From: Planctomycetota bacterium
Lineage (GTDB): Bacteria > Planctomycetota > B15-G4 > SIAN01
Reading direction: 5' to 3'
Assembly (NCBI GenBank): GCA_031409275.1
Contig: JANNXA010000051.1
Coordinates: forward strand, 1-64,000
Length of the DNA stretch: 64,000 nt
The translations under genes and the position numbers were made by a program. Positions 9,596-26,227 of this stretch are shown piece by piece. Numbering within the stretch: position 1 is the stretch's first letter; every line of letters starts with the position of its first letter. Below the pieces are notes generated by a model, which was not told where the DNA came from, did no database searches, and worked only from the letters and a program-made list of their open reading frames with translations.

Positions 9596-11815
9596 CTAAT
9601 CCCGCGGAAGTTGGCGCAGTGTAGCCGGGCGAGCCAACCGCAACGCGTTCAACACCACTGCCAGCGACGACGCCGCCATCGCCAGACCCGCCGCGGCCGG
9701 TTCGGGGGCGGTGACACCGAACTGCGCGAGCAGCCCCATCGCCCACGGCAGCGCGACGACGTTGTAGGCGACTGCGAGGACGACGTTCCCGCGCAGCACG
9801 CGGCGCGTCGCGCGCGCCAGATCGATCGCCGCGACCACGTCGAGCGGATCGTCGCGCAGCAGCACGAGGCCGCCGGCCGCGCGTGCGAGGTCGGTCGCTT
9901 GCGCCCCACCCATCGCCGCACCGACCGCGGCGATCGCGAGCGCCGCCGCATCGTTGAAGCCATCGCCGACGAAGAGCAGCGGCCCGTGCCGCTGCTGCTC
10001 TGCAGTGACCCGCGCGGCCTTGTCGGTCGGCGTGCAATCGGCATGCACCTGCGCCTCGGTCAGACCCAGCGCGCGCGCGACCTCGAGCGCGGCACTGCGC
10101 CGATCGCCCGTCACCATCGCGACGTGCAAGCCACGCGCCTGCAGCGCCGCGATGGCGGCCGCGGCTCCGGGCCGCACTCGATCCAGCAGCGGCCACGCCG
10201 CGAGCCGCCGGCCATCGACGCTCGCCACCACGACGCCGGCGCCTTGCGCGAGATCGGCGGGCGGCGCGTCTTCGCCCTGAAGCGCGAACGAGGCGCGCCC
10301 GAGCCGCCACTCCTTCCCGGCCTGCCGCATTCGCACGCCGAGTCCGGCACGCTCCTCGATCCCGAGCAGGTTGGTCGCGGTGGCTTCCGGCGGCGCGCTC
10401 GCCGCTGGCGGCCCACCGTCGGAGAGCTGGGCCGCGACCGCCTGTGCGGCCGCGTGGCGGCTGTTCGCCGCGAGTTGCCGCAACGTCGCGCGCTCCGCGT
10501 CGCTCATCGTGGAATGGAGCGGCGCGCCCGCGACGAGGCGCCCCTCGGTCAGCGTCCCGGTTTTGTCGAAAAGGACGGCACCGACCGCCGCCAACCGCTC
10601 GAAGAGCGCCGTCTCCTTGACCAGCAATCCGCGCCGCAACGCGCCGTTCATCGCCGCCACCAGCGCCGTCGGCGTCGCCAGCGCGAGCGCGCACGGACAC
10701 GAGATCACAACCGTCGCCAGCGCACGACCGACGACCGTGACGACATCGCTGCCGAGCCACGCGTGGCCGAGCGCGGTCAGCAGCGCCAGCCCGATCACCG
10801 CCGGCACGAACCACGCCGCGGCCCGCTCGGCCAACGTGACGATCGGCGCGCGCGTCGAGAGCGCGTCGCGCACCAACCGCCCGATCTGCCCGACTTGCGA
10901 CGCCGCGCCGGCGGCGGTCACTTCGATCAGGAGCGGCGCCTGCAAGTTGACGCAGCCGCCGGCAACGCGACTGCCGGGCGCGACATCGATCGGCAGCGGC
11001 TCGCCACGCAGCGACGCCGCGTCGACGCTCGACTGCCCCTCGCGGACGATGCCATCGGCGGGCAGCCGCTCGCCCGGCGCCACCACGACCTGCTCGCCCG
11101 GCACGAGATCCGCCGCAGCGACCTCTTCGATGCGACCGTCGCCGCCGCGTCGACGCGCCGTCGCTGGCAGCAGTTCGAGCAGCTCATGCATGCGCGACGT
11201 CGCGTGCGATCGCACCCGCGCTTCGAGCCACTTGCCGATCCGCAGGAACGCCACCAACCAGACCGCCGCGTGGCCGTGGTCGAGCGCGGGCGGGACGAGT
11301 TGCGCCGCCGCGAGCACCGCGAGCACCGTCGCCGCACCGGCTCCAAGCGCCACCAGCAGATCCATCGTTCCACGACGGGAGCGCAGCGCCGTCCAGGCGC
11401 CGCGCAGGAAGGAGCGGCCCGGCCAGGCCAGCGCCGCCAGCGCCAGCAGCGCCTGCAGCCAGGGCCCCAGTGCCCGCGGCTGATGCTCCGCGAGGTGGCT
11501 TTCGTGGCCTGGCAGCAACAGCGAGAGGAGCGCGAGCGCGGACGCTGCGAGCGCGAGGTGCCGCTCGGACCGCTCGGCCAGCCGCTGCGCGGTCGCGCCG
11601 CTCGCCGCCGCGTGGTAGCCGGCGGCCTCGACCGCCGCGATCAGCTTGGCGAGTTCGAGCCCGGAGCCGTCGATGCGAGCGAGACCGGCGGCGTAGTGAA
11701 CCTCCACCGCAGTCACGCCAGCCACCGCTCGCAGCGCCGACGCGATGGTGTCGGCGCAACCGGCGCAGCGCAGACCGGAAAGTTCGAGCAGCAGCGGTTC
11801 GGGTCGGGCGGCCAT
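9596..11815 (-). CDS. Heavy-metal (Cu+-type) P1B ATPase
   Basis: HMA CAGC, TM CPC, DKTGT, GDGFND, YN and MxxSS motifs. Confidence 0.9.
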   Translation of the reverse strand: MAARPEPLLLELSGLRCAGCADTIASALRAVAGVTAVEVHYAAGLARIDGSGLELAKLIAAVEAAGYHAAASGATAQRLAERSERHLALAASALALLSLLLPGHESHLAEHQPRALGPWLQALLALAALAWPGRSFLRGAWTALRSRRGTMDLLVALGAGAATVLAVLAAAQLVPPALDHGHAAVWLVAFLRIGKWLEARVRSHATSRMHELLELLPATARRRGGDGRIEEVAAADLVPGEQVVVAPGERLPADGIVREGQSSVDAASLRGEPLPIDVAPGSRVAGGCVNLQAPLLIEVTAAGAASQVGQIGRLVRDALSTRAPIVTLAERAAAWFVPAVIGLALLTALGHAWLGSDVVTVVGRALATVVISCPCALALATPTALVAAMNGALRRGLLVKETALFERLAAVGAVLFDKTGTLTEGRLVAGAPLHSTMSDAERATLRQLAANSRHAAAQAVAAQLSDGGPPAASAPPEATATNLLGIEERAGLGVRMRQAGKEWRLGRASFALQGEDAPPADLAQGAGVVVASVDGRRLAAWPLLDRVRPGAAAAIAALQARGLHVAMVTGDRRSAALEVARALGLTEAQVHADCTPTDKAARVTAEQQRHGPLLFVGDGFNDAAALAIAAVGAAMGGAQATDLARAAGGLVLLRDDPLDVVAAIDLARATRRVLRGNVVLAVAYNVVALPWAMGLLAQFGVTAPEPAAAGLAMAASSLAVVLNALRLARPATLRQLPRD

Positions 11816-11893
11816 GCGTCGCAGCTTAAGGTTCCTCCCGAACGGGAGCGGTTCACGGAACCCGCGATGGAACCGCCGAGGACGGACGCCACA

Positions 11894-13867
11894 ATGCGGC
11901 GCGTGCGATTCACCTCCGATGCCCGCCTCGCCTTCGGACTGCTGCTGCTGAGCGTGCTCGCGCTCGGGGCGTTCCTCTTCGTCGGTTTCCAGCCGCTCCG
12001 CTCGCGCGCGTTGCGCTCGCCCGCCGCCGAGCCGCCATCCGTCGCGCCGCTCGCCGGAACCGAGTTCGTCGATGCGACGGACGCAATCGGCCTGTCGGGA
12101 TTCGGCCACCAGCTCGAGTCGGGCGTGCGCTCGATCGCTGACGCGGTCGCCCCGGGACTCGGCCTGCTCGATCTCGACCAAGATGGCGACCTCGACCTCG
12201 TGCTCTTGACGGGCACCAGCGGCGCGACCGGCGTCGCCATCCTTCGCAACGAGCTCGTGCCCAGCGGCGCCGCGCACTTCGTCGACGTCACCGCCGCCGT
12301 CGGCATCAGCTGGCGCGGAGCCGCGCAGGGAATCTGCGCCGGCGACGTCGATGCGGATGGCGACGTCGATCTCTTCGTGACGGCGTACGGTCCCAATCTG
12401 CTGCTGCGCAACGAGCTGAACCAGGAAGGCGAGTTGCTCTTCAGCGACGTCACCAGCGATGCCGGCGTCGCCGGCGGCCGCTGGCACTGGTTGCAGACCG
12501 ACACGCTCCATCCGCCGACGGCGCGACCGGGTCCGCCGCCAGCGCTGCCAGGCAACGACACGACTCTGCGCGAGGTGCCCGAATTCTCGACCGGATGCAC
12601 GTTCGGCGACTACGACGCCGACGGCGACCTCGACCTCTACGTGGCGAACTACCTCTCCTACTTCGAGGCGCGCTGGGCGCTGCGCGGCGCCGACGAGTCG
12701 CAGCGCGAGGACCGTCTGGAACCGGCGCGCTACAAGCCGCAGGTGTTCGAGTCGCAAGACGATCGCCTCTACCTGAACGACGGCGAGGCGGACGACGTGC
12801 TGTTCCGCGACATCAGCCGTTCGGCAGGAGTCGATGACGATGAAGGGCGCGGGCTGGGCGCCGTGTTCGTGCGCGTCGATGGCGACGACTACCCCGACCT
12901 CTACGTCGCCAACGACGCGTCCGACAACGTCTTCTTCCACAACGTCGACGTCGGTCGCGACGATCCGCAGCGGATCCGCCGCCGCTTCGCCGACACCACC
13001 GTCGAGTTCGGATTGAACGACCCGAACTCGGGAATGGGCATCGCGCGCGGCGATGCCGACGGCGACGCCGATCTCGATCTGCTCACGACGAACTGGCGGT
13101 TCCAGTCCGCCTCGCTCTTCCTGTTCCGCCGCGAGGAGCGCGCCCGCGACGACGGCAGCCGCTCGCTCGAACCGTTCTTCGACGAACGCGGCGACGCGGC
13201 CGGGCTCGGCGGGGCGACCTCTCCGTTCGTCGGCTGGGGCTGCGTCTTCCTCGACTTCGACAACGACGGCGACGAGGACATCTTCGTCGGGAACGGTTTC
13301 ACGAGTCCGCGGCAGGATGCGTTGGCCTGCTCGCCCGAGAAGGCGCTGCTGTTCCTGAACCTCGGCGCCGGCCGCTTCGCCGACGTGACCGCTTCCGCGG
13401 GCAGCGCGCTGATGCGGACCTTCTCGGCGCGCGGCGTCGTGTGCGGCGACGTCGATCAGGACGGAGACCTCGACCTGTTGATCGCGCAGAACCAGGGACC
13501 GGTCGTCTACCTCGAGAACCATCTGCCGGCGAACGGCAACCAGTCGCTCGCCGTGTCGGTTCGCATCGGCGCGCTGCGGCCGCCGGAAGTCGCGCCCGCG
13601 ACGGAACCGCCGCCGCCACTCGTGCGCGGCGACGCCGTGAACGTGCAGGTGATCGTCGACGTCGGTGGCCGCAAGCTGGTGCGCGAGCTGGTATCGGGCG
13701 GCTCCTACTTGTCGCAGGGGCCCTTCGAGGCGCACTTCGGGCTCGGTCGTCTCCCACGCGCCGACGAGCTGCGCCTGCAGTGGCCGACGCCACGCGCGCG
13801 CAAGGTGGCCCCCTACCTGAACGTGCCGGCCGGGCGCATCCAGGTCGAGACGCCGCAGGAACGCTGA
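11894..13867 (+). CDS. CRTAC1-like FG-GAP / ASPIC-UnbV protein with N-terminal membrane anchor
   Basis: N-terminal TM helix, DxDxDGDxDL repeats, GSYLSQ...HFGLG...QWP; alternative start at 11867. Confidence 0.88.
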   Translation: MRRVRFTSDARLAFGLLLLSVLALGAFLFVGFQPLRSRALRSPAAEPPSVAPLAGTEFVDATDAIGLSGFGHQLESGVRSIADAVAPGLGLLDLDQDGDLDLVLLTGTSGATGVAILRNELVPSGAAHFVDVTAAVGISWRGAAQGICAGDVDADGDVDLFVTAYGPNLLLRNELNQEGELLFSDVTSDAGVAGGRWHWLQTDTLHPPTARPGPPPALPGNDTTLREVPEFSTGCTFGDYDADGDLDLYVANYLSYFEARWALRGADESQREDRLEPARYKPQVFESQDDRLYLNDGEADDVLFRDISRSAGVDDDEGRGLGAVFVRVDGDDYPDLYVANDASDNVFFHNVDVGRDDPQRIRRRFADTTVEFGLNDPNSGMGIARGDADGDADLDLLTTNWRFQSASLFLFRREERARDDGSRSLEPFFDERGDAAGLGGATSPFVGWGCVFLDFDNDGDEDIFVGNGFTSPRQDALACSPEKALLFLNLGAGRFADVTASAGSALMRTFSARGVVCGDVDQDGDLDLLIAQNQGPVVYLENHLPANGNQSLAVSVRIGALRPPEVAPATEPPPPLVRGDAVNVQVIVDVGGRKLVRELVSGGSYLSQGPFEAHFGLGRLPRADELRLQWPTPRARKVAPYLNVPAGRIQVETPQER

Positions 13868-13868
13868 A

Positions 13869-16391
13869 ATGAGCGACTCCATCCGCGGCCGCGGACTCCA
13901 TCGCATCCGCAACAAGGTGCTCGCCGTGCTGGTGGCGATGGCGGTGCTGCCGGCGGTCGCCGTCTCGATCTACGCGCTTCGCAAGACTTCCGACGCCCTC
14001 TCCGAGCAGGCGTTGACGCTCATCTCCGAGTCGTGCGTCACCGATGCGCGTCGCGCCGGCGATCTGCTGGCGGGCGTCGAGCAGCAACTCGTCGCGCTGG
14101 TGAAGGGGAACAACGATGCGACGCAGTTGCTGCGGCAGTTCGTCCCCGACGAGGACTCCCAGCAGAGCGGCGAGCGCGAGACGATCGAGGATTCCAAGTG
14201 GAAGGCGGTCCAGCGCGACTTGAACGCGGTCGACCAGAAACTGCGCCGACTGCTCGAGGAGCAGCCGAGCTGCCTGCTCGCGCTGGTCAGCTCGCCCGGG
14301 TTCGGGGCACCGGAAGGAACGCCGATCCTGTGGGTCGCGCGTGACGACGGCAAGCGTCCGTTGCAGAGCCTCGTCGAGCGCGACCGCTCCGGCTACCTGC
14401 GCCCGTTGCCGCCCCCCGCCGATCCGCTGCTGCCGCGGCTGGCCGAGAAGTTCAGCGAAGTCCGTGACCAGCATCCCGAGCGTGATCTGCTGCGCGCGAC
14501 GGTGATCCGCCCGGCACCCGACGAGGATGACGCCGTCGAGCTGTTCGCCGCGCGCGTGCAGGGCAGCCAAGGGACCGAGTTCGGCTGGATCTTCTTGGTC
14601 CATTCGTGGCGGCTGCTGCTGCGGGAACTGCACGAGCACGAGGCGATCGCCGAGGATCGGACGCTCCTGTCGATCTTCGATGCGCGCAAGCTCGCGCCGC
14701 TCGCGACCTCGCAGCCGGGCCGCTTCGTCAGGCTGCCCGAGGAGTTCGGGTTGCGCGACCACGCGCGCTCGCTGCATGCCAACGCCGCGCTGTTCGAAAG
14801 CGGCGAGGTGGTCGCGTTCGCGCCGCTGCTGCCACGCGGCAACGACGCGAGCCTCGCGTACGTCCTCGCCAGCGAACGACCGGCGAGCGGGCTCCTGGCC
14901 AGCGTGCGCCGCTTCCAGATCGTCTTCACCGCCGTGCTCGCGGGCGCGCTCCTGCTGGCAACCCTGGTCGGGTTGTGGTTCGCGCGCCGCCTCACGCGCC
15001 CGCTCGAGGTGCTGCGCGACGGTGCCATCCGCATCGGCCGCGGCGAGCTCACCCAGACGATCGAGGTGGCGACCGGCGACGAGGCGGAGGAGCTCGCGCA
15101 CGAGTTCAACGCGATGGCGGGCGAGCTGCGCTCGCTCTACGCCGGCATGGAGCAGACGATCCGCGAGCGCACCGAGCAGCTGCAGACGGCGCTCGACGGG
15201 CTGCGCGTCGCCCATGACCGCATCGTCGATTCGGAGAAGCGCTATTCCGACATCGTCGAGAACGCCTCCGACCTGATCCAGGTGACCGATGCGGAAGGGC
15301 GCATCGTCTCGGCCAACCGTCGCCAGGCGGAGCGCCTGTGCGCGCCGGGCGAAGAGCTGCGCGGCCGCTCCTTCTTCGACCTCGTCGCCCCGGAAGCGAG
15401 GACGGCCACGCAGCGCGCCTTCGCGCAGGTGCTGGCCGGCGGCTCGTTGCGCGCGTTCGACTCCGAGCTGATGGGCAACGGCAACGCGCCTCGTTTTCCG
15501 GTCGAGATCTCCGCCACGCCGATCATCGAAGCCGGTCGCGCCGTCGGCGTGCGGGCGATCCTGCGCGACGTCAGCGAGCGCAAGGCATTCGAGGCGCGGC
15601 TGATCAAGGCGGAGCGCCTCTCCTCGGTCGGCGCGCTCGCCGCCGGCGTGGCCCACGAGATCAACAACCCGATGGGCATCATCACGATGTTCGCGCAGCG
15701 GACGCTCGAGCGGGCGAAGAAGGGCGAGCTCGACATCGCCAAGCTCGAGAAGATCGTCGAGCAGGGCAAGCGCGTCGCGGCGATCACGCGCAACCTGCTC
15801 GACTTCGCGCGCGCGGCGCCGACTCGCTTCGCCCCGTTCGCGATCGGCGACGTGGTCCAGAGCACGTGCGCGCTGGTCGCCGATCGTGTGCAGATGGCCT
15901 CGATCACGCTCGCCGTCGACATCGCTCCGGGCCTGCCGCCGGTGATGGGCAACGGCCAGCAGATCGGCCAGGTGGTGCTGAACCTCCTGCTGAACTCGAT
16001 CCAGGCGCTCGGCAAGGAGGGGCGCATCACCGTGCGCGCCGAGTCGATCGAGAGCGGACGGCTGCCTACCGGCGGTCGCGCGCTGCGCGTCACCGTCGAG
16101 GATGACGGGCCCGGCATCGCGGCGGAGGCGCTGCCTCACCTGTTCGAGCCGTTCTTCACCACCAAGGCGCCCGGCGAGGGCACCGGACTTGGACTCTCGG
16201 TCTCTTGGGGCATCGTGAAGGATCACCACGGCGCGATCTTTGCCCGCAACCGCCCGGAGGGGGGCGCCTGCTTCGAGCTGGAACTACCCTTGGAAGCGGC
16301 GCTCGCCATGAGCGACGAGTCGAAGCGTCCCAACCTGCCGTCGGCGTCCCCGACGGCTCCTGCACCCGCAAAGAATGAAAGCGAGAGCTGA
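13869..16391 (+). CDS. Membrane sensor histidine kinase (periplasmic domain, HAMP, PAS, HisKA, HATPase)
   Basis: Two TMs, HAMP, PAS, AHEINNP H-box, N/D/F/G boxes (FFTTK...GTGLGL). Confidence 0.95.
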   Translation: MSDSIRGRGLHRIRNKVLAVLVAMAVLPAVAVSIYALRKTSDALSEQALTLISESCVTDARRAGDLLAGVEQQLVALVKGNNDATQLLRQFVPDEDSQQSGERETIEDSKWKAVQRDLNAVDQKLRRLLEEQPSCLLALVSSPGFGAPEGTPILWVARDDGKRPLQSLVERDRSGYLRPLPPPADPLLPRLAEKFSEVRDQHPERDLLRATVIRPAPDEDDAVELFAARVQGSQGTEFGWIFLVHSWRLLLRELHEHEAIAEDRTLLSIFDARKLAPLATSQPGRFVRLPEEFGLRDHARSLHANAALFESGEVVAFAPLLPRGNDASLAYVLASERPASGLLASVRRFQIVFTAVLAGALLLATLVGLWFARRLTRPLEVLRDGAIRIGRGELTQTIEVATGDEAEELAHEFNAMAGELRSLYAGMEQTIRERTEQLQTALDGLRVAHDRIVDSEKRYSDIVENASDLIQVTDAEGRIVSANRRQAERLCAPGEELRGRSFFDLVAPEARTATQRAFAQVLAGGSLRAFDSELMGNGNAPRFPVEISATPIIEAGRAVGVRAILRDVSERKAFEARLIKAERLSSVGALAAGVAHEINNPMGIITMFAQRTLERAKKGELDIAKLEKIVEQGKRVAAITRNLLDFARAAPTRFAPFAIGDVVQSTCALVADRVQMASITLAVDIAPGLPPVMGNGQQIGQVVLNLLLNSIQALGKEGRITVRAESIESGRLPTGGRALRVTVEDDGPGIAAEALPHLFEPFFTTKAPGEGTGLGLSVSWGIVKDHHGAIFARNRPEGGACFELELPLEAALAMSDESKRPNLPSASPTAPAPAKNESES

Positions 16392-17788
16392 TGGCGCGGA
16401 TCCTGGTGGTCGACGACGAAGAGGCGATCCGCAGCGGCCTCGCTGAGATCCTCACCGAGGAGGGCTACGACGTCGAGCAGGCCGGCGACGGCCAGTCGGC
16501 GCTGGCGCGCGTTCGCGAAGCGGTCTTCGATCTCGTCTGCACCGACGTCCGCATGCCGCGCATGGACGGCCTCGAACTCGTCGAACGGGTGAAGCAGGAG
16601 AGCCCCGAGACCGAGCTCATCGTCATCACGGGGTTCGCGAGCCTGCAGTCGGCGGTCGACGCGGTGAAGCGCGGCGCCGAGGACTATCTCAGCAAGCCGT
16701 TCGACCTCGACGAGGTGCGCCTCACCGTGAAGCGCGCGCTCGAGAAGAAGTCGCTTCGCGACAAGCAGGGGCGTCTCGAACGGCGCGTGGCCCATCTGTC
16801 GCCGGGCAAGGCGCTGCTGGGCAAGAGCGCCGCCTTCCTGCGCTCGCTGCAGCTGCTCGAGCGCGTGGCGCCGACGCAGTCGACCGTGTTGATCCTCGGC
16901 GAGACGGGCACCGGCAAGGAGCTCGTCGCTCGCGAGATCCATCGCCAGAGCCCGCGCGCCGCCGAGCCGTTCATCCCGATCAACTGCGGCGCGCTGCCCG
17001 ACACGCTGCTCGAAAGCGAGCTCTTCGGCTACGCGAAGGGCGCCTTCACCGGCGCCGACAAGAACACCCACGGTCTCTTCGAGGCGGCCGACCGCGGCAC
17101 CCTCTTCCTCGATGAGATCGGCAACATCTCGCTCAGCATGCAGCAACGACTGCTGCGCGTGCTCGAGTCGGGCGAGCTGCTGCGCCTCGGTGAGCGCAAG
17201 GTTCGCAAGGTCGACGTGCGCATCGTGGCCGCCACCAACTCCGACCTGAAGCGCGACGTCGAGAAGGGGCTGTTCCGCCAGGATTTCTACTACCGCCTGC
17301 GTGTCCTGAGCCTCGAGCTGCCGCCGCTGCGGGACCGCATGGACGACTTGCCGCTGCTGGCCAACCACTTCCTGGAAGGGTGCGCCGCGCGCTTCCACAA
17401 GAAGATCGACGGCTTCTCGAAGCCCGCGCTCGCGGCCCTTTCGGGCCATCGCTGGCCCGGCAACATCCGCGAGCTCGAGAACTCCGTGGAGCATGCGGCG
17501 ATCCTGTGCGTGACGCCGTCGATCGAGCTCGAAGACCTGCCGGGAGAGCTGCGCGAGAAGGCGGTGACGGATGGCGGCGCGGCCGCCGCGCCGGTCACCC
17601 TCGACGCGCTCGAACGCCAGCACATCCTGCGAGTGCTGCGCGAATCCGGCGGCCATCGCGGCCGGACCGCCGAGATCCTCGGCATCAACCGCCGGACGCT
17701 CTACCGCAAGCTGATCGAGTACGGCGTCGCCCGGGACGAGGGGGACGACGAGGACGGGGACGATTCGCCCCAGCCCGCGACGACGTGA
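16391..17788 (+). CDS. Sigma-54-dependent response regulator (NtrC/AtoC family)
   Basis: REC domain (VDDE, DVRMP), [23 protein letters not shown]-terminal HTH. Confidence 0.95.
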   Translation: MARILVVDDEEAIRSGLAEILTEEGYDVEQAGDGQSALARVREAVFDLVCTDVRMPRMDGLELVERVKQESPETELIVITGFASLQSAVDAVKRGAEDYLSKPFDLDEVRLTVKRALEKKSLRDKQGRLERRVAHLSPGKALLGKSAAFLRSLQLLERVAPTQSTVLILGETGTGKELVAREIHRQSPRAAEPFIPINCGALPDTLLESELFGYAKGAFTGADKNTHGLFEAADRGTLFLDEIGNISLSMQQRLLRVLESGELLRLGERKVRKVDVRIVAATNSDLKRDVEKGLFRQDFYYRLRVLSLELPPLRDRMDDLPLLANHFLEGCAARFHKKIDGFSKPALAALSGHRWPGNIRELENSVEHAAILCVTPSIELEDLPGELREKAVTDGGAAAAPVTLDALERQHILRVLRESGGHRGRTAEILGINRRTLYRKLIEYGVARDEGDDEDGDDSPQPATT

Positions 17789-17799
17789 TTGGGGCGAAT

Positions 17800-17825
17800 C
17801 GTCTCAGCCACAGGTCGGTGAGACG
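17800..17825. promoter_or_regulatory. Candidate bEBP enhancer: inverted repeat CGTCTCA-N12-TGAGACG
   Basis: Perfect 7-bp dyad centred about 170 bp upstream of the predicted sigma-54 start site. Confidence 0.4.
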
Positions 17826-17954
17826 TTTCGACCACGCTCGCGCCGATCGCCCGCCCTCCGTTCCACGGCACCGTGAGCCTCAAGTTGCTGCAGGAGCTTG
17901 ACTTGCGCACGGTCGAAAAAAGTTGGGACAGTGCGGGAGCAGGTTGGGACCTGT

Positions 17955-17969
17955 TGGCACACCCGTTGC
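17955..17969 (+). promoter_or_regulatory. Sigma-54 (-24/-12) promoter
   Basis: TGGCAC-ACCCG-TTGC matches the TGGCAC-N5-TTGC consensus exactly. Confidence 0.75.
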
Positions 17970-17978
17970 CATGAAATG

Positions 17979-18133
17979 AGCGGAGGCGCAAGCGCGTTCT
18001 CCGCTGATCGCACCTGGGTACCGGCAAGTCTTCGGGACGAACAGCGCACCTGAGTCGAATGGAAACGGGACCTTTCGAGCGAGAGGTCCCCTTCGCGAAG
18101 GCCGCCTCGGCAAGGGTGGCCTTCGTTCGTTTT
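17979..18133 (+). ncRNA. Candidate sigma-54-dependent small RNA
   Basis: Begins at the predicted +1. Has a 5' hairpin AGCGGAG/CTCCGCT, a cUUCGg loop, a 10-bp hairpin at 18067-18090 and a terminator hairpin with T tract. No credible ORF. Confidence 0.55.
18096..18133 (+). terminator. Intrinsic terminator
   Basis: CGAAGGCCGCC...GGTGGCCTTCG stem followed by TTCGTTTT. Confidence 0.65.
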
Positions 18134-18160
18134 ACGGCGTTCGTTTTACGGCGTTCGTTT
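18125..18160. repeat. 14-bp tandem repeat GTTCGTTTTACGGC, about 2.6 copies
   Basis: Copies at 18125-18138 and 18139-18152, partial copy at 18153-18160. Confidence 0.85.
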
Positions 18161-18187
18161 CCCGCCGCTTCGTGACCGCCGCTTCGT

Positions 18188-19429
18188 TCAGGCGGTGAAA
18201 TCGAATCGCATCGGAACGACGACCACGCCGCCGCTCGAAACGGTGAAGCGACGGCGGTCGCGCTCGAGGTCATGGCCGATCGTCTCGCCCGCCGGCACCT
18301 CGGTCCACTTGTCGATGATGGCGCGGCGCACCTTGGCGCCCGGCTTCACCACGACGCCAGCGTGCAGGATCGAGTCCTCCACCACCGCGTGCTCCTCCAC
18401 CCGCACCTGGTAGCTCAGGACCGAGCGCTCGACGCGACCGCCCGAGACGATGACGCCGGGGCAAACGATCGAGTCGAGCACCTCGGCGCGCTTGCCGGTG
18501 CCGACCGGATCGGCGAAGACCGTCTTCGCGGGCGGCTCGTTGTGCTGCATGGTGAAGATCGGCCAATGGCGGTCGTAGAGGTTGAACTGCGGCGTCACCG
18601 AGATGAGATCGAGGTTCGCCTCGTAGAACGAGTCGATCGTCCCGATGTCGCGCCAGTACGGCTCGTCCTTCTGGTTCTCGTCGACGAAGCGATGGACGAC
18701 GACCTTCTTGTCGCGGATCGCGCGCGGGATCACGTCCTTGCCGAAATCGTGGCTCGAGTCGGCGCGCGCGGCGTCCTCGACCAGCAGTTCCTTCAGCGCC
18801 GACGTCTCGAACAGGTAGATCCCCATCGAGCCGAGCGCGTGGCTCGGGCGATCGGCCATCGGCGTCGGATCGCGCGGCTTCTCCGCGAAGCTCTTCACGC
18901 GGCCGTCGGGATGGACCTCGAAGACGCCGAAGCGACTCGCCTCGCCGATCGGGACCGGCACCGCGCCGATCGTGATCGCGGCGCCCTGCTTCACGTGGTC
19001 CTGCAGCATGCGACCGTAGTCCATTTTGTAGATGTGGTCGCCCGACAGGATCAGCACGCGCTGCTTGCCCTCGGCCTCGATCGTCTCGAGGTTCTGCTGC
19101 ACGGCATCGGCGGTGCCGCCGTACCACGTCTCGCGCGTGGCGCGCTGCGGCGGCAGCGGCGCGATGAACTGCGCGAGGCGCCGCGGCAGGAAGTTCCACC
19201 CGAGCCGCAGATGGTCCTCGAGCGAGCGCGAGCGGTACTGCGTCAGCACGTAGATGTGACGCAGACCCGAGTTGATGCAGTTGCTGAGCGTGAAGTCGAT
19301 GATCCGGTACATGCCGCCGAACGACACGGCCGGCTTCGCGCGCTCCGCCGTCAACGGCATCAGACGCTCGCCCTGGCCGCCGGCGAGGATCAGCGTGAGG
19401 GTCTGCTGCAGTGAATCAGTGAGCGGCAT
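18188..19429 (-). CDS. glgC: Glucose-1-phosphate adenylyltransferase
   Basis: LAGGQGERL, RAKPAVSFGG, WYGGTADAV, SMGIY, DFGKDVIP, YWRDIGT. Confidence 0.97.
   Translation of the reverse strand: MPLTDSLQQTLTLILAGGQGERLMPLTAERAKPAVSFGGMYRIIDFTLSNCINSGLRHIYVLTQYRSRSLEDHLRLGWNFLPRRLAQFIAPLPPQRATRETWYGGTADAVQQNLETIEAEGKQRVLILSGDHIYKMDYGRMLQDHVKQGAAITIGAVPVPIGEASRFGVFEVHPDGRVKSFAEKPRDPTPMADRPSHALGSMGIYLFETSALKELLVEDAARADSSHDFGKDVIPRAIRDKKVVVHRFVDENQKDEPYWRDIGTIDSFYEANLDLISVTPQFNLYDRHWPIFTMQHNEPPAKTVFADPVGTGKRAEVLDSIVCPGVIVSGGRVERSVLSYQVRVEEHAVVEDSILHAGVVVKPGAKVRRAIIDKWTEVPAGETIGHDLERDRRRFTVSSGGVVVVPMRFDFTA

Positions 19430-24823: not shown

Positions 24824-26227
<1,404 letters not shown>

Follow-up and report, generated by a model that had tools for sequence, protein, structure and literature searches.

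We identified a predicted small RNA gene at positions 17981..18133 (plus strand) of the window, the whole 64,000-nt stretch analyzed here from contig JANNXA010000051.1 of the Planctomycetota bacterium assembly GCA_031409275.1. Based on comparative sequence evidence, our preferred interpretation, to which we assign a probability of about 0.6, is that the gene specifies a family-specific structured RNA of ~155 nt that is transcribed from a sigma-54 promoter under the control of the regulator encoded upstream and that pairs through a loop with the mRNA leader of a gene for a CarboxypepD_reg protein. The narrower claim that the locus represents a new RNA family of an already known type, a small RNA paired with a sigma-54 activator, appears well supported by comparative evidence. 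An earlier note on this DNA had proposed that a small RNA of ~155 nt, sigma-54-dependent and not yet described, is encoded here and does not serve as the leader of a coding gene. This proposal is supported by the lack of any Rfam match, by a promoter and hairpins that are conserved with covariation, and by the presence of rpoN and of an enhancer-binding regulator next to the RNA gene.

The locus consists of a histidine kinase gene, a gene for an NtrC-type regulator, a 190-nt spacer with TGGGAC repeats, the promoter, the four-hairpin RNA with its terminator and, in convergent orientation, glgC. The genome of the window (G000; 5.59 Mb, 69.4% G+C and 92.9% complete) was compared with the other seven genomes of the same family (G001-G007). 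The significance of the locus comes from position and conservation, as single motifs are each within chance: the promoter pattern at up to one mismatch was found twice in the window versus 2.97 times expected, and terminator-like sites once versus 0.7 times expected.

Structure and distribution of the predicted RNA

The predicted RNA is ~153 nt long between its predicted ends and contains four hairpins, P1 to P4; covariance models R1-R3 match 17977-18136, with covariation. The 5' hairpin, P1 (17981..18003), whose arms in the window lie at 17976-17985 and 17999-18008, differs entirely in sequence between genera and folds in every case, with 5 of 9 pairs changed on both sides in the family and 97% of cells paired. 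P2 (18004..18044) is a three-tier hairpin (GCUG/CAGC, UCG/CGA, CC/GG and GGGU/GUCU) with the loop ACCGGCAA. Its architecture was identical in local folds of all ten sequences, the loop reading ACCGGCAA(G/A), and its outer stem covaries (GCUG/CAGC, GCG/CGC, ACG/CGU and AGCU/AGCU). P2 contains the box CUGGGUACCGGCAAG (18014..18028), a predicted seed. Within it, all ten sequences agree on every letter of GGGUACCGGCAA (18016-18027), which falls in a hairpin loop in 10 of 10 folds.

The 5' hairpin had already been recognized from the window alone, as had two other features of this region that fared less well across relatives. A repeated motif is indeed present, as CGCACCTGGGT at 18009 and CGCACCTGAGT at 18045, but the second copy reads GCTCCTGAG in relatives and is not kept as a repeat. 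It had been suggested as a seed or a protein-binding site, but the predicted functional core is the invariant GGGUACCGGCAA, which overlaps only the first copy. Likewise, the cUUCGg loop noticed between the copies exists but is specific to this genome, and the stretch in question forms the 3' strand of the conserved three-tier hairpin.

P3 (18067..18090) is a hairpin with a variable stem and a loop, CGAGCGAG (18076-18083), that is conserved in the genus of the window, where the sequence CGAGCGA is kept. It was excluded from the covariance model because the MAFFT columns are inconsistent there, and its support comes from single folds, in which stems differ between sequences yet remain self-complementary. 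P4 (18095..18133) is an intrinsic terminator with a 13-bp stem, a loop with invariant GGCAAGGG and a U-run; changes on both sides affect 4 of the 13 pairs, and the stem-loop itself (18095-18126) is followed by TCGTTTT. Both the 10-bp hairpin at 18067-18090 and the terminator thus lie where they had been predicted from the window. Starting within the terminator U-run, three tandem 14-nt units (CGTTCGTTTTACGG twice, then a 79% copy) occupy 18124-18165; the terminator tail is locally duplicated, in the genome of the window only.

Folding of 17979-18135 gave z = -2.59, which by itself is likewise within chance. In a model-based alignment of ten sequences, which was fitted to the model's own structure and represents only about four independent lineages, 92.1% of cells were paired compared to 83.4 ± 1.1% in shuffles (0 of 500 as high) and 30-47% in slid controls, and 10 of 34 pairs were changed on both sides (reached by 3 of 500 shuffles). 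No open reading frame can be conserved across the RNA, given stems that vary and indels of 13-15 columns. It is accordingly highly implausible that the locus is a short protein-coding gene, or the leader or attenuator of a plus-strand gene: spurious reading frames do span the region, but the indels are not multiples of three, no plus-strand gene lies downstream and the ATG at 18060 is in a stretch that is absent or different in relatives.

The gene that follows is glgC (ADP-glucose pyrophosphorylase; 18188..19429, minus strand; assigned by Pfam), which is convergent, as previously noted, and which we treat as context only. It is found in this orientation 3' of the RNA at 8 loci, with a gap of 10-67 nt at 7 of them and ~840 nt in G003, while G006 has no glgC within 1.5 kb. 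The short distance at the seven loci, together with a terminator stem that also scores on the opposite strand, would fit an element acting at the level of DNA or convergent transcription, either a terminator or antisense module of glgC or regulatory DNA of the two-component operon, with no free trans-acting RNA. We consider this very unlikely, as the RNA and its invariant box are kept in both G006 and G003, compensatory changes in P1, P2 and P4 indicate selection on a plus-strand RNA structure, and the plus strand has its own promoter and U-run. The intervening ~840 nt in G003 (L090 1665-2506), seen in that genome only, contain repeated TTGCAGCAGACGAAGC units and may be an inserted repeat element.

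Searches for known and related RNAs gave a consistent picture. With Rfam 15 (4227 models), the window had no match at the gathering score, and a search of 17700-18300 with E up to 10 returned only six chance matches to eukaryotic miRNA, snoRNA and frameshift models (best E 0.9). This result favors novelty, and the homologue search and covariation check, which had been suggested along with the Rfam search, likewise turned out in favor of the RNA, with promoter and hairpins kept in relatives. Using BLAST, the region was found in all four other genomes of the genus. With six sequences as input, a covariance model identified exactly one copy in each of the seven other family genomes and none in 34 genomes from the order's four other families. 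A later model built from ten sequences recovered the same distribution in the class set (the same 42 genomes), plus two weak matches of 29-30 bits, and matched none of 150 other genomes sampled across the phylum. Both weak matches (C14 of the window's own genome, 30 bits, and G025, 29 bits) were rejected as terminators behind coding genes that lack the box.

We also scanned half of a metagenome collection for the pattern of box plus terminator loop. The scan yielded 120 loci, of which 3 were true homologues according to the covariance model, including one identical to the G001 sequence; the other 117 were mostly codons of Walker-A motifs (G-T-G-K). The RNA is restricted to one family of uncultured Phycisphaerales.

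Sigma-54 promoter and adjacent regulator

The RNA is preceded by an exact match to the sigma-54 promoter TGGCAC-N5-TTGC (TGGCACACCCGTTGC; 17955..17969, plus strand), with GG at -24, GC at -12 and a predicted +1 near 17981, and no sigma-70-like promoter was found in 17600-18400. Two direct repeats of GTTGGGAC start at 17922 and 17943, 21 bp apart (17922..17950, plus strand), and the proximal copy ends 5 nt upstream of the -24 element. Directly past the stop codon of the regulator gene lies a distal inverted repeat, CGAAtCGTCTCA and TGAGACGtTTCG separated by 12 nt (17792..17833), which is a candidate enhancer site. The promoter, the direct repeats and the core of this dyad (CGTCTCA at 17800-17806 and TGAGACG at 17819-17825, again 12 nt apart) had all been reported in the earlier note and are present as described; the dyad additionally extends to 20-nt arms (17792-17811 and 17814-17833) that are 80% complementary. 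A BLAST match of 39 nt in G018 covers the dyad only.

The direct repeats and the distal dyad share the same hexamer, which is in inverted orientation in the dyad, and from this we infer that TGGGAC is a half-site of the adjacent regulator. Counting both strands, the 5.59-Mb genome has only two exact copies of the promoter motif. Among 48 GG[CA]AC-N5-TTGC sites in the genome, the RNA promoter is the only one with at least two TGrGAC motifs in the 220 nt upstream, where it has four compared to none or one at the other sites, and nowhere else in the genome are direct repeats arranged beside a promoter in this way. Across ten homologous loci, the promoter reads GGCAC-N5-TTGC in nine and GGAAC-N5-TTGC in the tenth (G006), and the arrangement TGGGAC-N15-TGGGAC-N5-GGCAC is kept at 9 of 10. 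Within the genus of the window, the distal dyad is conserved as GTCyCA...TGrGAC.

Upstream of the spacer is a two-component pair identified using Pfam. The first gene encodes a sensor histidine kinase (13869..16391, plus strand; HAMP-PAS-HisKA-HATPase_c) and the second an NtrC-type response regulator of the sigma-54 enhancer-binding type (16391..17788, plus strand; REC, Sigma54_activat at 2e-69 and HTH_8). Both proteins are AtoS/AtoC- and NtrC-like and fall under every NCBIfam equivalog cut-off; the best match of the kinase is AtoS-like (246 bits versus a cut-off of 646), and the regulator scores 338 bits against the GlrR model, under its cut-off of 763. The regulator gene is located upstream of the RNA in all nine loci having upstream sequence, and a kinase gene precedes it in G002 and G007 as well. 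In the genome collection, the two closest relatives of the regulator have 83% and 80% identity and the next at most 46%; the regulator is as narrowly distributed as the RNA. The genome also contains rpoN (C49, 196 bits) and 19 strong sigma-54 activator genes.

Several other features of the neighborhood were recorded. A 1418-amino-acid FG-GAP/ASPIC-UnbV repeat protein is encoded at 9611-13867, ending 2 nt before the kinase start codon; its gene may share a transcript with the two-component pair, and the protein could belong to the sensing machinery. Another sigma-54 activator is encoded 7 kb farther downstream in the window (25283-25786, minus strand), and a GalT-like gene and two GH57 genes are found downstream past glgC. 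In G004, the locus is split across two contig ends (C21 end and C42 start) that overlap at the enhancer and promoter with few differences, which probably reflects a mixture of strains within the assembly and not a duplicate of the locus.

A candidate target in an mRNA leader

We scanned both strands of the genome for complements of the box, requiring exact complementarity and either allowing G-U pairs or accepting Watson-Crick pairs only. Zero-mismatch sites with G-U pairs were discarded: because the box resembles G-T-G-K codons, these fall on the antisense strand of P-loop genes and are not mRNA. Restricted to Watson-Crick pairs, the longest non-self complement genome-wide (5.59 Mb) spans 14 nt (CUUGCCGGUACCCA, at C51:381016) and lies within a ~700-nt intergenic region, 212 nt before a start codon. 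The next complements, of 13, 12 and 11 nt and nominally intergenic, appeared to be coding or antisense when inspected (one, for example, antisense to an L35-like gene). The gene behind the 14-nt site encodes a protein of 1013 amino acids that is membrane-anchored at its N-terminus and contains at least five CarboxypepD_reg repeats, and is followed on its 3' side by an FGE-sulfatase-domain gene.

The complement is kept in all five orthologous leaders examined, which come from two genera, at 205-213 nt before the ATG. Comparing each leader with the RNA of its own genome, the longest complement, which involved the box in every case, was 14 nt in G000 (0 of 300 shuffled leaders as long), 13 nt in G004 (1 of 300), 12 nt in G003 (3 of 300), 13 nt in G001 (1 of 300) and 13 nt in G006 (0 of 300). 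Cofolding, with the cost of unfolding charged, gave gains of -31 kcal/mol in G000, -15 in G004, -24 in G003, -27 in G001 and -16 in G006. Shuffled targets gained about -8 kcal/mol, and the observed gain was reached in 0 of 40 shuffles for four pairs and 2 of 40 for G006.

The leaders of G004, G003 and G001 are poorly alignable overall. Those of the window's genus keep GGAAC-N20-CTAA with a non-conserved spacer (L218 about 1955-1990 and its orthologues), which resembles an extracytoplasmic function (ECF) sigma factor promoter and which, if used as such, would place the small RNA site at the extreme 5' end of the mRNA. They also keep a hairpin, GCCyGC-UCGCUC-GCrGGC, with a compensatory change in its stem, directly followed by UUGCCGGUACC. 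The loop of this hairpin, UCGCUC, is complementary to the P3 loop over 7-12 nt in all four leaders of the genus. In G006, the orthologous protein is only 37% identical and its leader has a different hairpin, then CCUGCCGGUACCCAG.

It is rather unlikely, in our assessment, that the RNA is real and regulator-dependent but has its targets elsewhere, with the complementarity to the CarboxypepD_reg leader being coincidental or serving another purpose. Gene calls were crude, the scan covered exact complementarity only, mononucleotide shuffles of GC-rich sequence occasionally yield blocks of 12-14 nt, and G006 has a second site of 11 nt located 55 nt before a lipoprotein gene. Nonetheless, in two genera with target proteins of 37% identity, the complement involves one and the same part of the RNA and lies at the same distance from the ATG, and the leader is barely alignable apart from the kept elements. 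The 11-nt complement in G006 (L233 about 1501, G006:C23:481286), which precedes a lipoprotein-like gene, is within chance for the 8.4-Mb genome (6 pattern matches versus 10 for a reversed control).

Two further features of the target locus were observed. An anti-Shine-Dalgarno hairpin, both conserved and covarying (CUUCCCUC/GAGGGAAG, or CAGCCC/GGGCUG in G003), closes off the start-codon region; it is located at L218 2160-2232 (G000:C51 about 381160-381231) and in the orthologues L219, L220 and L221. This hairpin could be a separate translational switch, and leader folds revealed no consistent link between it and the box-complement site far upstream. In addition, two TTGGGAC motifs, which contain the hexamer seen in the repeats at the small RNA promoter and are possible further sites for the regulator, lie 240-390 nt upstream of the leader, at L218 about 1631 (plus) and about 1775 (reverse complement), the first in a stretch of 63 nt whose conservation in G004 is 83%.

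With respect to protein partners, neither csrA (PF02599) nor hfq (PF17209) had a match in the 92.9%-complete genome, while controls gave matches. The lack of hfq suggests that the RNA acts without Hfq, and the lack of csrA weakens the idea of a CsrA sponge; CsrA titration, which the earlier note had offered as a weaker alternative, has lost ground. Each GGA triplet is located either in a linker that is not conserved or in a strand of the P1, P2 or P3 stem, and the conserved loops read ACCGGCAA, GAGCGA and CGGCAAG, a pattern that does not fit such a sponge. A broader possibility is a real RNA that acts as a decoy for a protein, much like CsrB or 6S, with the two CGGCAAG loops as protein sites. 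Consistent with this, GGCAAG is common to the loops of P2 (ACCGGCAAG) and of the terminator (yCGGCAAGG), where it is invariant in 10 of 10 sequences, and with no Hfq found, another partner protein is plausible. We nevertheless judge a decoy unlikely. Such loops number only two, csrA was not found, the GGA motifs are confined to stems or non-conserved linkers, and a GCAAG-type terminator loop also occurs in unrelated terminators and is perhaps generic. A conserved complement of 12-14 nt in orthologous leaders would also be unexpected for a decoy.

Returning to pairing with the CarboxypepD_reg leader, the parts suggest the following mechanism. The kinase would sense a signal and phosphorylate the regulator, which would then bind the TGGGAC repeats and activate the sigma-54 promoter, leading to RNA production. 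The exposed P2 loop (ACCGGCAAG) may nucleate pairing with the leader just behind its 5' hairpin, after which pairing would spread into the GGGU strand of the P2 stem and the duplex grow to 12-14 bp. In the genus of the window, the P3 loop (GAGCGA) could also engage the UCGCUC loop in the 5' hairpin of the leader, as a second contact. Because the site is 205-213 nt before the start codon and near the predicted 5' end of the mRNA, an effect via mRNA stability or leader folding would be more likely than direct blocking of the ribosome site.

Several observations weigh against this interpretation, in addition to the limits of the covariation alignment given above. G006 is without the proximal TGGGAC repeats and has a close inverted pair, TGGGAC-N5-GTCTCA, farther upstream. 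Elsewhere, the proximal repeats lie at about -37 and -58, which is unusually close for an enhancer, so that a second protein may bind there or the repeats may have a repressing role. Four of the five leaders examined are from a single genus, and G002, G005 and G007 fell outside the comparison because their assemblies, 70-86% complete, either place the gene at a contig edge or yielded no copy of it. Minimum free energy folds of the five leaders gave no consistent partner for the site and do not predict the outcome of pairing. Finally, the P3 loop can close down to 4 nt in G000 and G004, which would weaken a kissing contact.

Relation to known small RNAs

We compared the locus with four small RNA systems that depend on sigma-54. 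Pxr, described from Myxococcus xanthus and relatives, is located downstream of nla19, a gene for a sigma-54-dependent response regulator, and has its own sigma-54 promoter in the intergenic spacer, several stem-loops and a distribution limited to one clade (PMC5568312). Its direct targets are described as unknown in one account, which then proposes pxrA (PMC11928866). On the features covered by these accounts, the two systems are alike in having a small RNA directly behind a sigma-54 regulator gene, its own sigma-54 promoter, stem-loops and restriction to a clade. The present RNA differs in its phylum, in having four hairpins rather than three and in having a conserved candidate target site. 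Rfam presumably includes a Pxr model, and the region had no Rfam match to it even at E up to 10.

In Vibrio, the NtrC-family response regulator LuxO activates the sigma-54 promoters of the mRNA-pairing Qrr small RNAs (PMC4878744). As far as that source describes them, the common elements are an NtrC-type regulator, a sigma-54 promoter for a small RNA and mRNA pairing, which is predicted here. Qrr small RNAs act with Hfq. In contrast, no hfq was found here, there is one RNA copy per genome, and we found no match in sequence or structure. For CrcZ and CrcY of Pseudomonas, sites for the regulator of the CbrAB system are described in the small RNA promoter (PMC8871633). The logic of kinase, sigma-54 regulator and small RNA is the same to the extent outlined there. 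The crcZ gene is downstream of cbrB, and CrcZ is a protein sponge with A-rich motifs, whereas the RNA described here is GC-rich and has one invariant loop and an mRNA complement.

GlmY of Enterobacteria is expressed from a sigma-54 small RNA gene adjoining the dedicated two-component system GlrK/GlrR, and GlrR is among the NCBIfam models that the present regulator resembles (338 bits, cut-off 763). GlmY acts as a decoy of RapZ, and its gene lies upstream of glrK; the RNA here differs in having no Rfam match. By sequence or structure, the RNA is not a member of the Pxr, Qrr, CrcZ or GlmY families.

Taken as a complete circuit, a dedicated kinase and a sigma-54 regulator with the RNA as its only promoter target would act through an Hfq-independent RNA whose invariant hairpin loop, together with a second loop-loop contact, exerts control at the 5' end, far upstream, of the mRNA that encodes a giant envelope protein together with its FGE-sulfatase partner. 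We put forward this full scheme, of a kind not yet described in Planctomycetota, only tentatively. Our literature search on Planctomycetes combined with small or non-coding RNA, sigma-54 or transcription start sites found nothing relevant, suggesting that regulatory RNAs are essentially uncharted in the phylum. The organisms are uncultured and the RNA is confined to one family, which limits its reach. Within these bounds, the locus would be an independent example of a recurring design in which a sigma-54 activator gene adjoins its small RNA, here with neither Hfq nor CsrA found. The parts of the locus are clearly delimited, which makes it a convenient place to start: two genes form the sensor pair, candidate enhancer sites accompany the promoter, the structured RNA displays a 12-nt invariant loop, and there is a specific and conserved candidate target.

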